A DNA stretch of 64,000 nucleotides from Eledone cirrhosa (GCA_964016885.1 OZ024741.1:142228001-142292000), one strand, 5' to 3'; numbered from the stretch's first letter, positions 35,099 to 38,272 are shown. Numbers and translations are program-made. Notes: generated by a model not told the origin, from the sequence alone.

Positions 35099-35141
35099 AA
35101 TATTTGATAAGATTGATGAAACAATTGAAACCGGTAATATT
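35099..35141 (+). ncRNA. Minimal type I hammerhead, U3-A8 core
   Basis: AATAT-TTGATAA-GATTG..CAATT-GAAA-CCGG-TA-ATATT; identical at 47274-47316; stem II variants at 37597-37639 and 49585-49627. Confidence 0.75.
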
Positions 35142-35284
35142 TGTCAAAATTTAAATCTACTTAATGAAACAATTATAAAATTATTCAATCAATCGGTTTA
35201 AAGAGAGAAATAATCTCCAAGTATACTGTACGTTTGAACTTTTTTACTTTTACTTTTTAACCTTTTATTTGAATGGAACTTTAT

Positions 35285-35590
35285 TCCTTTTTCACTGCCA
35301 GGAATAGTGGAGGCTTCTGGTGTCCTTGGCCCTAGGGCCACCTCCCTACAAACCAAAATCGGCACAGAGTTGGCTACTCGCAGATGTGAGCCTCGCGAAA
35401 TGGAATGGTTCTCCCAGCACGTTTCCCTCACCATCCTCCGGGGAAACGCCTTCTCTATTCTGTCCACCGGGGCCGCCAGCGAGTGGTGCACCATTTGCTC
35501 CTAGTGGTGAGAGATGGGGAGATCGGGAGAGACAAAGGCAGTGACAGTGACTGTGGGAGATTGGTTTCTTTGTGTTCGGACCCTATTTGT
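35285..35590 (+). mobile_element. Second CRE-like family 3' fragment
   Basis: VEASGVLGPRA..WFSQHVSLTILRGNAFSIL; copies at about 37780-38042, 47460-47765, 49770-50070, 50870-50985. Confidence 0.7.
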
Positions 35591-35844
35591 ATGTATATGT
35601 TTCACGGACATTACCTATGTGAAAGAATGCAGGAGAGAGATTCTTCTTTGAAAATGTCCAAATTCATATCACGCACACGCACACACACTGTCAACACGCG
35701 CACACGCCCACACACGCGCACAGAGAGAGAGAGAGAGAGATGCAAAAAATTGTACACTATATATACATACATATATACGAAAAGAAAAGAGAGGAGAGAG
35801 AATTAGTCGTTCATTGACATAAATTTAATAACCATCAAACAACT

Positions 35845-35956
35845 GCCCCGGTGGCACAATCGGTTAGCGCGCCGTACTTATAGACAGTACCTTCCTTGTG
35901 TTAATCATAAGATAGGAGATATGCGGAGGTTGTGAGTTCGAACCTCACCCAGGGCA
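35845..35956 (+). tRNA. tRNA-Ile(UAU) with 38-nt intron, full length
   Basis: Same cloverleaf as the 28735 copy; long T run downstream; AT-rich CATAAATTTAATA upstream. Confidence 0.9.
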
Positions 35957-36393
35957 GAAATTACTTTTCATTTTTTTTTTTTTTTTTTTTCATTTAAGCA
36001 GCAATCTATATTAGTTATTTATCAAATTTCCTGATTGCATCCATCTTGTAAAGTTGTATATTTATTACATATCTATGATTAGTATTTGTGTTTTACACAC
36101 CAGTTGTTTATTTTGGGTATTGCGAATACAAACATAGCCTGGGTCAGTATGTTGGGGGAGGGGGTTGTATAAATTCTCTAAATAGATAGTGGTTGGTAAA
36201 AGTCGGTAGAGTGTCTTTCATTGTTTTGTGTTCAAATTTCGCTGTTGTTGATATCCTTCTTCATTATTTTGGGACCAATACTTCATTGAGTATTGAGTAT
36301 TGTTCATAGGGGGTGGTTGATGAAATATTATTTGGTCCTGAACAGAAAGGCCAGTATTCTTTGTGACACAGCTCCCATATGTATGTGTGTGTG

Positions 36394-36491
<98 letters not shown>

Positions 36492-36612
36492 TTTGTAAAT
36501 ACTAATTATACATAAGTAATAAATATTCAACTTTACAAGATGGATGCAATCAGGAAATTTGATAAATAACTAATATAGATGGCTGCTTAAATGAAAAAAA
36601 AGGAAGTATATC

Positions 36613-36715
36613 TGCCCTTGGTGAGGCTCGAACTCACAACCTCCACATATCTCCCTTCATGTGATCAACACAAAGAAGGTAATGTCTAGAAGTACGGAGT
36701 GCTAACCGATTGTGC
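36613..36715 (-). pseudogene. 5'-truncated tRNA-Ile-derived pseudogene with TCT anticodon
   Basis: First 9 nt missing; loop reads CT-TCT-A. Confidence 0.85.
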
Positions 36716-36821
36716 TTATTAAATTTATGTCAATAAACGACTAATTCTCTCCCCCCCCCCCCCCACTCTCTCCGAACAACTTTTGCATCTCTCTTTCTAC
36801 CCTCTTCTCTCTACCTTCCCC

Positions 36822-36868
<47 letters not shown>

Positions 36869-36927
36869 GAAAAAAATGAAATCAAAAATGCAACTGGATC
36901 TTTTTTTTTTAAATAAATCTATTTGGT

Positions 36928-36967
36928 TACTTTACCGGTTTCGCAGTTCTTGTGCTTTTCAAAAGTA
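36928..36967 (-). ncRNA. Minimal type I hammerhead, U3-A8 core
   Basis: Reverse complement TACTT-TTGAAAA-GCA.CAAGAAC.TGC-GAAA-CCGG-TA-AAGTA; damaged duplicate near 48918-48956. Confidence 0.75.
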
Positions 36968-37109
36968 GAATTGAGTTGGAGGGTTTGTGGTTTTTCTCAC
37001 ATCTGGTTGGTGTTTGAATGTTACTTCTGTTTTATATGGAAAAAAGTGGCTCGAAATGCTAGGTTTTTAGAGAAGTAATTTGGTTGGTTGGTGAATAAGT
37101 ATAATAAAT

Positions 37110-37563
37110 TTCTGTGATCAGTTTGAACATATATGAATTTTCTATCAAACTTTCTCTTATATAGGTGTGGTGGTAAATGTTGAAGTGGTATTTAACAGGT
37201 CAGGATTCCATCGAATTCACTTGATTAAGCTAGAAAATTATTTTACTATTCATAAAAATGGTCCAAGTGGCATTTTTGATGAGTGTGTGTTTAGTGTGAA
37301 TAAGTAGGTGGAGTTTAATCGTGTCAAAATTTGGTGTCAAAAGGTCTGTGTTACAGGGGTAAAGTAGCAAAAAAAAGCTAAACACATACTCATCAAAAAA
37401 TCCACTTGGGCCATTACTATGAATAGTAAAATAATTTTCTAGTTTAACCAAGTTAATTCGATGGAATCCTGACCTGTTAAATACCACTTCCTCATTCACC
37501 ATCACACCTATATAAGAAGAAAGTTTGATAGAAAATTCATATATGTTCAAACTGCTCACAGAA
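37110..37563. repeat. Inverted repeat, arms about 185 bp
   Basis: 37110-37294 mirrors 37378-37563; duplicate at about 49100-49551. Confidence 0.85.
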
Positions 37564-38272
37564 TATATTAGAACACTTTTTTAAAAATTTAATATTAATA
37601 TTTGATAAGTTTGATGAAACCATCGAAACCGGTAATATTTGACGAAATTCAAACCTACTTAATGCATCAATTATAAATCATTCATTCTGTCTGATTAAAG
37701 AGAGAAATAATCTTCAAATATAGTGTATGTTTGTGCATTTTACTTTTACTTTTAACCTTTTATTTGAATGGAACTTTACTCTCCTTTTCACTGCCAGTAA
37801 CAGTGGAGACTTCTGGTGTCCTCGGCGCTAGGGCCAACTCCCTGCTCACCACCATCGGCGCAGAGTTGGCTACGCACAGGTGTGAGGCTTGCGAAATGGA
37901 ATGGTTCTTCCAACGCGTTTCCATCGCAATCCTCGGGGAAACGCCTTCTCTATTCTCTCCGCCGGGGCAGCCAGTGCGTGGGTCCCTAGTGCTCCTAATA
38001 GTGAGAGATTGGGAGTGCAGGAGAGACAGAAACAGTGATAGTGATGTCGGCTTCCACTCTGAGGGCAATGGAGACTCGAAGCTCGTGCAAGCTGAGTAGG
38101 CCACCAACGTTAGCCTTGGGAGATGGGCTGACCCTGAGCATTTATAGAAGCTTAGGAATCGAAAGATAGTTTCTTGATGGGGTTTAATTGCCTCAATACC
38201 CTTCAACAATTGCTCAAGGCCTTCTTCAATTGACTGAAGATTGACTCATTCTCTCTCTCTCTCTCCTCCGCC

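Follow-up and report, generated by a model that had tools for sequence, protein, structure and literature searches.

Hammerhead motifs with a U3-A8 core in an Eledone cirrhosa window as probable 3' parts of Penelope-like retroelements

Does a hammerhead motif that has exchanged its C3-G8 pair for U3-A8 mark an undescribed ribozyme retroelement, or is it a part of a known one? The question is raised by a stretch of 64,000 nucleotides from Eledone cirrhosa (GCA_964016885.1 OZ024741.1:142228001-142292000), here called the window, in which an earlier note, made from the sequence alone, had seen such motifs in two separate repeat families. The note took them for active ribozyme retroelements of cephalopods, an overlooked class and the best candidate for an undescribed system. 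Our results put them not in stand-alone ribozyme elements but at the 3' ends of protein-coding Penelope-like elements (PLEs). We are highly confident that the motifs belong to PLEs, and almost as confident that they sit in the 3' pseudo-long terminal repeat (pLTR) of PLEs with a Neptune-type linker.

The five motifs listed by the note, at 35099, 47274, 37597 and 49585 on the plus strand and at 36928 on the minus strand, are all present, although these numbers mark edges of stem I and not the core. The core TTGATAA starts at 35104, 47279, 37602 and 49590 (+), and the core TTGAAAA starts at 36962 (-), 36928 being the far end of stem I. The anatomy described in the note (stems, GAAA, CCGG and GUA) holds. 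The family A minimal type I hammerhead at 35099..35141 (+) has a 5-bp stem I (35099-35103/35137-35141), the core from U3 to A9 (35104-35110), a 5-bp stem II with G10.1-U11.1 (35111-35126), GAAA with G12-A15.1 at 35127-35130, the palindrome ACCGGT around CCGG (35130-35135) and GUA; the predicted cut falls after 35136, as the note had it. The second family A copy (37597..37639, +; core 37602; predicted cut after 37634) is damaged, with just 2 bp of stem II in register. The family B hammerhead (36928..36967, -; U3 at 36962; predicted cut after 36933) has a 5-bp stem I and a 3-bp stem II. Segmental duplicates of the 35099 and 37597 hammerheads lie at 47274..47316 and 49585..49627 (both +). The three-way order of type I (stem I-core-stem II-GAAA-stem III-UH-stem I) is found at 35104, 47279 and 36962. 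In every window copy of these motifs the 3-8 Watson-Crick pair is U3-A8, and the invariant U4, G5, A6, A9, G12, A13, A14, A15.1-U16.1 and H17 are all kept in families A, B and C.

The pattern TTGANAA-N11-20-GMAACCGGTA gave 11 matches in the window, compared with a mean of 0.00 in 100 shuffles. Six of the matching U3-A8 motifs were absent from the note's list. One is a family C hammerhead at 16690..16719 (+), with stem I down to 1 bp in register; the other five read G-C-A-A and form family B2, which combines U3-A8 with C13 (3690..3719, +; 32836..32866, -; 43733..43763, +; 61744..61774, -, in an inverted arm; 62502..62532, +). A damaged duplicate of the family B hammerhead, whose palindrome lacks one C (48923..48951, -), was not listed either. 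The Rfam scan of the window, with 99 matches at E<=1, returned no hammerhead family and missed canonical copies too. The note was right that searches built on CUGANGA would miss the U3-A8 motifs.

Translation of the window at ~35090-38100 gave no PLE protein match, and the link to the element came from other copies. The motif of each family lies 0.15-1.4 kb downstream of an open reading frame (ORF) with reverse transcriptase (RT) and GIY-YIG domains, and in tandem copies a second motif lies ~175-195 bases upstream of the first start codon. In the window itself, a family B2 ORF at 835..2343 (+; a 502-aa open stretch with RVT_1, GIY-YIG and a CX4CxxC linker) stops 1.35 kb before the motif at 3690, and B2 ORF fragments at other loci are 95-98% identical to it in DNA. 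In family B, a 938-aa open frame with RVT_1 and GIY-YIG (L183) lies between two direct repeats, 98.6% identical over 874 bp and each with a motif, the upstream one ~175 bases before the start codon; at L077, the ORF lies between inverted 896-bp repeats, again with a motif in each. The tandem structure is also seen in B2 (L148, with a 570-bp direct repeat). Family A is linked to its ORF at L073/L074; L073 has RT/GIY-YIG remnants 0.73 kb upstream of the motif and a 362-bp inverted repeat. A GIY-YIG search that did not depend on the motif, in which 150 of 10,596 candidates were scored and 70 loci, some of which overlap, were inspected, returned the same pairings: B with U3-A8-A13, B2 with U3-A8-C13, C and T with U3-A8, and families Q and P1 with C3-G8. 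In this search, no motif was found for family S. The retroelement context that the note had suspected is thus real, with RT/GIY-YIG ORFs upstream of the motifs.

Families A, B and B2 have two alternative 3' ends, with or without a tail of 35-60 bases, followed by (TA)n, and copies often bear an inverted 5'-truncated arm. The CX4CxxC linker occurs in families A, B, B2, C and T. Inverted arms and tails are described for Penelope-like elements, and (TA)n targets and a CX2-5CxxC linker for Neptune/Nematis (PMC8557442). By their CX2-5CxxC linker and (TA)n ends, the carriers appear to be of the Neptune (or Nematis) type. Their named protein relatives come from bivalve molluscs or their symbiont assemblies.

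Some features of the carriers stand apart from this argument. Animal-type Penelope-like ORFs also occur in bacterial genome bins, as named bacterial GIY-YIG proteins (L253-L258; P0022, P0053, P0057, P0060), which are likely host contamination. In families B and B2, a coiled-coil-like first ORF overlaps the frame of the RT, and the overlap falls on a T-TTT-TTA run that is conserved and likely a -1 frameshift site (L077, minus, near offset 3752; L148, minus, near offset 4755; L183); in L183, one extra T fuses the two frames. A frameshifted ORF1 is mentioned for PLEs (PMC8557442). Inverted motif pairs recur at a fixed spacing of 111 bases in B2 and 108-114 in B (for example, G000:C1, 21363531/21363642 and 1095210/1095323), and are either an inversion hotspot or small non-autonomous palindromic units. 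Two family B copies (L368, L442) are without the whole motif between the stem I strands, as if it had been skipped in copying.

The genome was counted for variants at positions 3 and 8 with the anchor GAAACCGGTA. The results showed 19,587 U3-A8 motifs compared with 11 for the reversed control, while C3-A8, U3-G8 and C3-G8 gave 134, 98 and 12 (controls 12, 6 and 2). With the ~12,500-copy sister family B2 included, the genome total is ~32,000 such motifs. The single mutants (0.5-0.7%) carry the stems of the big families and represent decay, and some U3-G8 rows are misregistered. C3-A8 was considered as an evolutionary intermediate and rejected: among 100 listed copies of family D, 95 were U3-A8, 3 C3-A8, 1 U3-G8 and 1 C3-G8.

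Related elements from other organisms were examined at 86 loci, which contained 19 distinct plus-strand loci with the strict motif; three minus-strand rows and identical repeats were not counted separately. Fourteen of the 19 were C3-G8, five were U3-A8 and none was C3-A8 (Fisher p 9e-5; 4e-4 when one in-ORF U3-G8-G13 hit was counted). The sister pair L332 (C-G) and L336 (U-A), with 73-78% protein identity, differ by exactly the 3-8 swap. These loci, the swap included, show that U3-A8 is a recurring state in PLEs. The note had read positions 3 and 8 as a compensated pair and proposed a genome-wide search for their linkage; across families the two positions are indeed linked, in 19/19 outside loci, and do not vary independently. 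Within this genome, a protein tree placed the U3-A8 families A, T, B, B2, C and E in one clade against Q and S, with a support of 100 in the SH-like approximate likelihood ratio test (SH-aLRT) and of 91 with a distant root. For this second tree, we removed two near-duplicate and three long rows, or retained one of them as root. The U3-A8 core was likely inherited once by this clade, so a single change explains what the note had taken for two families of separate origin. Two small old families, G (L113-L115, L117, L119) and F (L120, L121, L123, L124, L128), have C3-G8, partly CpG-decayed, but share their CCGG palindrome and stem II with the U3-A8 families C and D. The fetched loci of G and F held no ORF remnant and the two could not be placed; they are candidates for the ancestral state or a reversion.

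How might such motifs cut? The transcript of a tandem locus would carry two motifs, and their ACCGGU palindromes could pair and build the missing stem III in a dimer, by analogy with PMC4209133 and PMC11167929. The ACCGGU self-duplex is worth -8.3 kcal/mol and occurs in the cofold minimum of 6/6 window motifs that retain ACCGGU; the palindrome is lost at 48951. U3 would pair with A8 as C3 does with G8, which would position G12 and the 2'-OH of residue 8 to cut after GUA. The activity would probably be low and aided by the protein of the element; cleavage would trim the precursor RNA, and most cDNA would be copied from RNA that had not been cut. A small share of copies (~90 in family B) starts exactly at the site, as if cut RNA sometimes served as template. 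In B2, which has A13C and three A-U pairs as stem I, cleavage is likely weak or absent.

The evidence on cleavage comes from 5' junctions. A copy with the complete motif derives from uncut RNA, since both sides of the site are kept. In family B, there were 614 copies without the normal upstream context, and the first 100 listed gave 84 rows for examination after small indels, mutants and duplications had been left out by eye; a script excluded 31 more as same-strand events. By script, 16/53 junctions were at the cut site, compared with 2.8 per position 3-11 bases upstream. After cleaning, in which paired rows were counted once and two rows with ORF flanks were removed, 15/48 were at the predicted cut site, an approximately five-fold excess (binomial p 5e-6 at 1/12 and 0.009 at 2/12); with 0 to 11 bases kept 5' of the site, the counts were 15, 3, 5, 6, 4, 2, 2, 3, 0, 2, 1 and 5. 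A control search with its edge inside the core showed no such rise in its edge bin (273 hits; 5 of 100 listed by eye, 2/14 by script). Scaled up, the counts give ~92 family B copies that start at the site, where each neighbouring position has ~17 and the control bin ~14. In B2 (176 hits, 64 rows examined, 33 excluded), 5/31 scripted and 3/29 cleaned junctions were at the site compared with 2.1 per position, which is no excess. The family B excess is suggestive of real cleavage. We lean towards the view that intact family B motifs cleave, and we doubt that the B2 motif does.

Several points weigh against taking these motifs for compensated and working ribozymes. The full dimeric hammerhead fold was the cofold minimum for no window U3-A8 motif, and the cofolds partly lose or misregister stem I or II. 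Stem I is weak or displaced in B2 (three A-U pairs), in its sister family C (1-2 bp in register) and in D. The genome counts show fixation of positions 3 and 8 within families and not independent covariation, because the two are fixed per family and single mutants are decay. The one-clade result leaves a single change event in this genome, and a first, larger tree left the U3-A8 clade unresolved, with long-branch warnings. The difference between B and B2 is not significant in the scripted count (16/53 and 5/31, p 0.17-0.20) and reaches p 0.051 only after hand de-duplication, post hoc; family B junctions compared with the scripted control gave p 0.31. The junction excess lies in an edge bin, with an ambiguity of 1-2 bases from AT-rich flanks and small samples. 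For Anolis, none of the RNA reads is reported to begin at the cut site (PMC11167929). Dispersed copies of family A match their majority line at 87-93% identity (14 copies), and only 9/16 keep G12 in register, a picture of neutral decay.

Family B2 deserves separate attention. Genome-wide, 12,552 matches have a non-A base at 13 (control 85), and this base is C in 99 of the 100 listed, so the invariant A13 is not found in B2. Non-C13 copies number only 136 genome-wide, which indicates that C13 was already present in the B2 source elements. An ancestral A13 subfamily was considered and is unsupported: 100 listed of these 136 copies are 51 T, 36 A and 13 G by eye. The monomer minimum of B2 is a competing hairpin. 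If the C13 motif still cuts, the change may be tolerated because residue 13 has lost its ground-state pairing with A8, or because as C it lies opposite A17. Changes at A13 are reported to inhibit 10-100-fold, compared with >100-fold for C3, G5, G8, G12 and A14 (PMC4075628). No natural C13 hammerhead was found in the literature searched, a weak negative, as the likeliest place (Lunse et al. 2017) was outside our reach. The sister families B and B2 both amplified recently, and B2 did so to ~12,500 copies despite its likely weak or absent cleavage; retrotransposition would then not depend on efficient cleavage.

The same facts can be read without cleavage. The U3-A8 motif may no longer cut and may persist for dimerisation or protein binding, through its ACCGGU palindrome and stem II, close to where reverse transcription starts; the C-to-U/G-to-A drift and A13C would then be signs of relaxed catalysis. 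The fixation of A13C in ~12,400 copies, with non-C13 in just 136, speaks for this, as does the eroded stem I of families B2, C and D; in addition, Anolis hammerhead mutants did not block insertion in vitro (PMC11167929), and Naiad elements are described as thriving without the motif (PMC8557442). However, U4, G5, A6, A9, G12, A14, A15.1-U16.1 and H17 are kept across protein families that are ~40-70% identical, positions 3 and 8 remain paired in every outside locus, family B junctions are in excess at the cut site, and the inhibition reported for A13 changes is just 10-100-fold (PMC4075628). We consider this alternative unlikely, though it has to be taken seriously.

Much less probable is the proposal of the earlier note, an undescribed, independent and retrozyme-like class of active non-coding retroelements in which U3-A8 evolved twice. 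Most copies are indeed short and non-coding, and the palindromic pairs with their recurring spacing (~111 bases in B2, 108-114 in B) could be non-autonomous units. However, the short copies nest as 3' fragments within RT/GIY-YIG elements, the window has no short non-coding head-to-tail array of these motifs, the U3-A8 families form one clade, and U3-A8 hammerheads of PLEs were already published (PMC4209133); the ORF linkage largely refutes this proposal. Equally improbable is that GGTA serves chiefly as the splice donor of a 5' untranslated region (UTR) intron in tandem copies, the hammerhead look being secondary. Penelope elements do have a pLTR intron (PMC8557442), and families A, B, B2 and C read CCG-GTAA, but other families read GTAC, GTAT or GTCA there, family Q is without GT, and a donor leaves the core, stem II and the 3-8 linkage unexplained. 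Chance matches, which an AT-rich region, short stems and monomer folding energies near zero might invite, are practically negligible given the window and genome counts against their controls (11 against 0.00; 19,587 against 11) and the fixed position of the motif in the element.

Returning to hammerheads carried by PLEs, the window copies also record a local history. The family A 3' stub at 35094..35297 (+) is 5'-truncated ~10 bases before the core and includes the optional tail; its 35094-35281 is 78.5% identical to the L073 3' UTR, and the tail was compared with L015-L030. The family A direct arm at 37340..37795 (+), with the element's 3' UTR, hammerhead and tail, is 75% identical to L073 over 37388-37776, and an inverted 5'-truncated arm of the same insertion (37102..37330, -) is 82% identical to the direct arm. 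The inverted 5' arm of the 37602 copy (37102-37570, 82%) adjoins a family B 3' stub (36862..37112, -), which shares 85% identity with the 3' UTR of L183, the copy with the long ORF, and runs into (TA)n at 36835-36865. The stretches 35094-35550 and 37593-38044 are 84% alike, with a common junction to an unrelated retroelement fragment, and the 47269 and 49581 copies are segmental duplicates, 94-97% identical. The 14 best matches all fall within a 300-kb part of one contig, and the junction to the unrelated fragment is absent from dispersed family A copies. The four family A copies of the window therefore likely descend from a single old insertion. Truncated and mutated, the window copies are relics and likely inert, and any function of theirs seems very doubtful.

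Other features surround them. A multi-copy segmental duplication, in ~12 kb units 94-97% identical on both strands, covers window positions 27000-64000 and G000:C2:142.03-142.31 Mb. Five tRNA-like copies, with 39 extra bases inserted in the anticodon loop, pass the Rfam cut-off (35845-35956 +; 28735-28846 -; 39137-39248 -; 50365-50476 -; 52681-52792 -), and degenerate copies also occur; ARAGORN calls no tRNA at these positions, and they are possibly intron-containing tRNA genes or pseudogenes. Positions 18900-19838, 23498-26451, 13359-14216 and 20099-22988 hold ORF sets, a transposase remnant and a 36-bp minisatellite by an N gap. From their translations, we take these to be two non-LTR retrotransposon ORF sets and a mariner-like transposase remnant. 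Four canonical CTGAYGA hammerheads that were not in the note's list (4794+, 8690-, 8820+, 10062-) form a C3-G8 family with an 8-bp stem I, a long stem II and a TATGTA insert. One of them lies just downstream of a distant Penelope-type RT fragment (ORF fragment 10122-10811, -), and 8690/8820 are an inverted pair.

What do these motifs add? More than 30,000 motifs in one genome escape CUGANGA and Rfam searches. On the boldest reading, family B, with most of the ~19,600 motifs, and B2, with ~12,500, would be a natural experiment on the role of the Penelope hammerhead. The A13 and C13 sister families, together with the 5'-junction test, offer a direct route to whether PLE hammerheads cleave in vivo, and the same pair also asks whether retrotransposition needs cleavage. 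The family B junction peak would then be genomic evidence of in vivo cleavage by a U3-A8 PLE hammerhead. Either C13 is a still-cutting, unreported core variant, or a retroelement thrives with a silenced but conserved hammerhead; a scar confined to B, left by U3-A8 cleavage in vivo, is a tentative view that we hold with more doubt than belief. The fixed A13C of the sister family, which was not found in print, is an addition to the published U3-A8 hammerheads.

The U3-A8 core itself is no novelty, contrary to the earlier note: such cores were in print in 2011 (PMC3088659) and in PLEs in 2014 (PMC4209133), and the claim of an undescribed system, as stated, matters little. A search of the literature for octopus, hammerhead and Penelope together found nothing on the subject. 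Perreault et al. 2011 (PMC3088659) reported natural U3-A8 covariation and called it previously shown to be active in vitro; their variants have the same covariation but are scattered examples, whereas here a whole clade of retroelements has it fixed. Metazoan non-LTR retrozymes (bioRxiv 10.64898/2026.07.22.740005) share the type I hammerhead and a PLE origin, but they are short non-coding tandem repeats, and here we have dispersed truncations and inversions of coding elements.

The hammerhead of PAc, a Poseidon element of Anolis carolinensis (Frangieh et al. 2024, PMC11167929), also lies near the pLTR-ORF junction, and two reverse-transcription start sites likewise give an optional tail. It cleaves only with the protein of the element and depends on the 3-8 pair, and insertion in vitro does not require the hammerhead. 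PAc is C3-G8, and its ORF starts inside the motif, whereas here the start codon lies ~175-195 bases downstream and the linker is of another type.

The closest system is Cercyon of Schistosoma mansoni (Cervera and De la Pena 2014, PMC4209133), whose ~1,300 hits are U3-A8 min-hammerheads; for a min-hammerhead, the paper reports no activity as monomer and low activity as dimer. Both systems have type I, a minimal palindromic stem III and a U3-A8 core; UUGAUAA and UUGAAAA are both in the supplementary alignment of that paper. Both sit in PLE repeats, mostly as single truncated copies with some close opposite-strand pairs (100-700 bp apart in S. mansoni), and both are missed by a CUGANGA descriptor. 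The motifs described here differ in a mollusc-type genome, a CX4CxxC linker (Neptune/Nematis type) and ~20,000 copies, in a 4-base CCGG insert and A17, and in the C13 that the sister family adds, unlike the readable rows of the Cercyon alignment, which are all GAAA or AGAAA.

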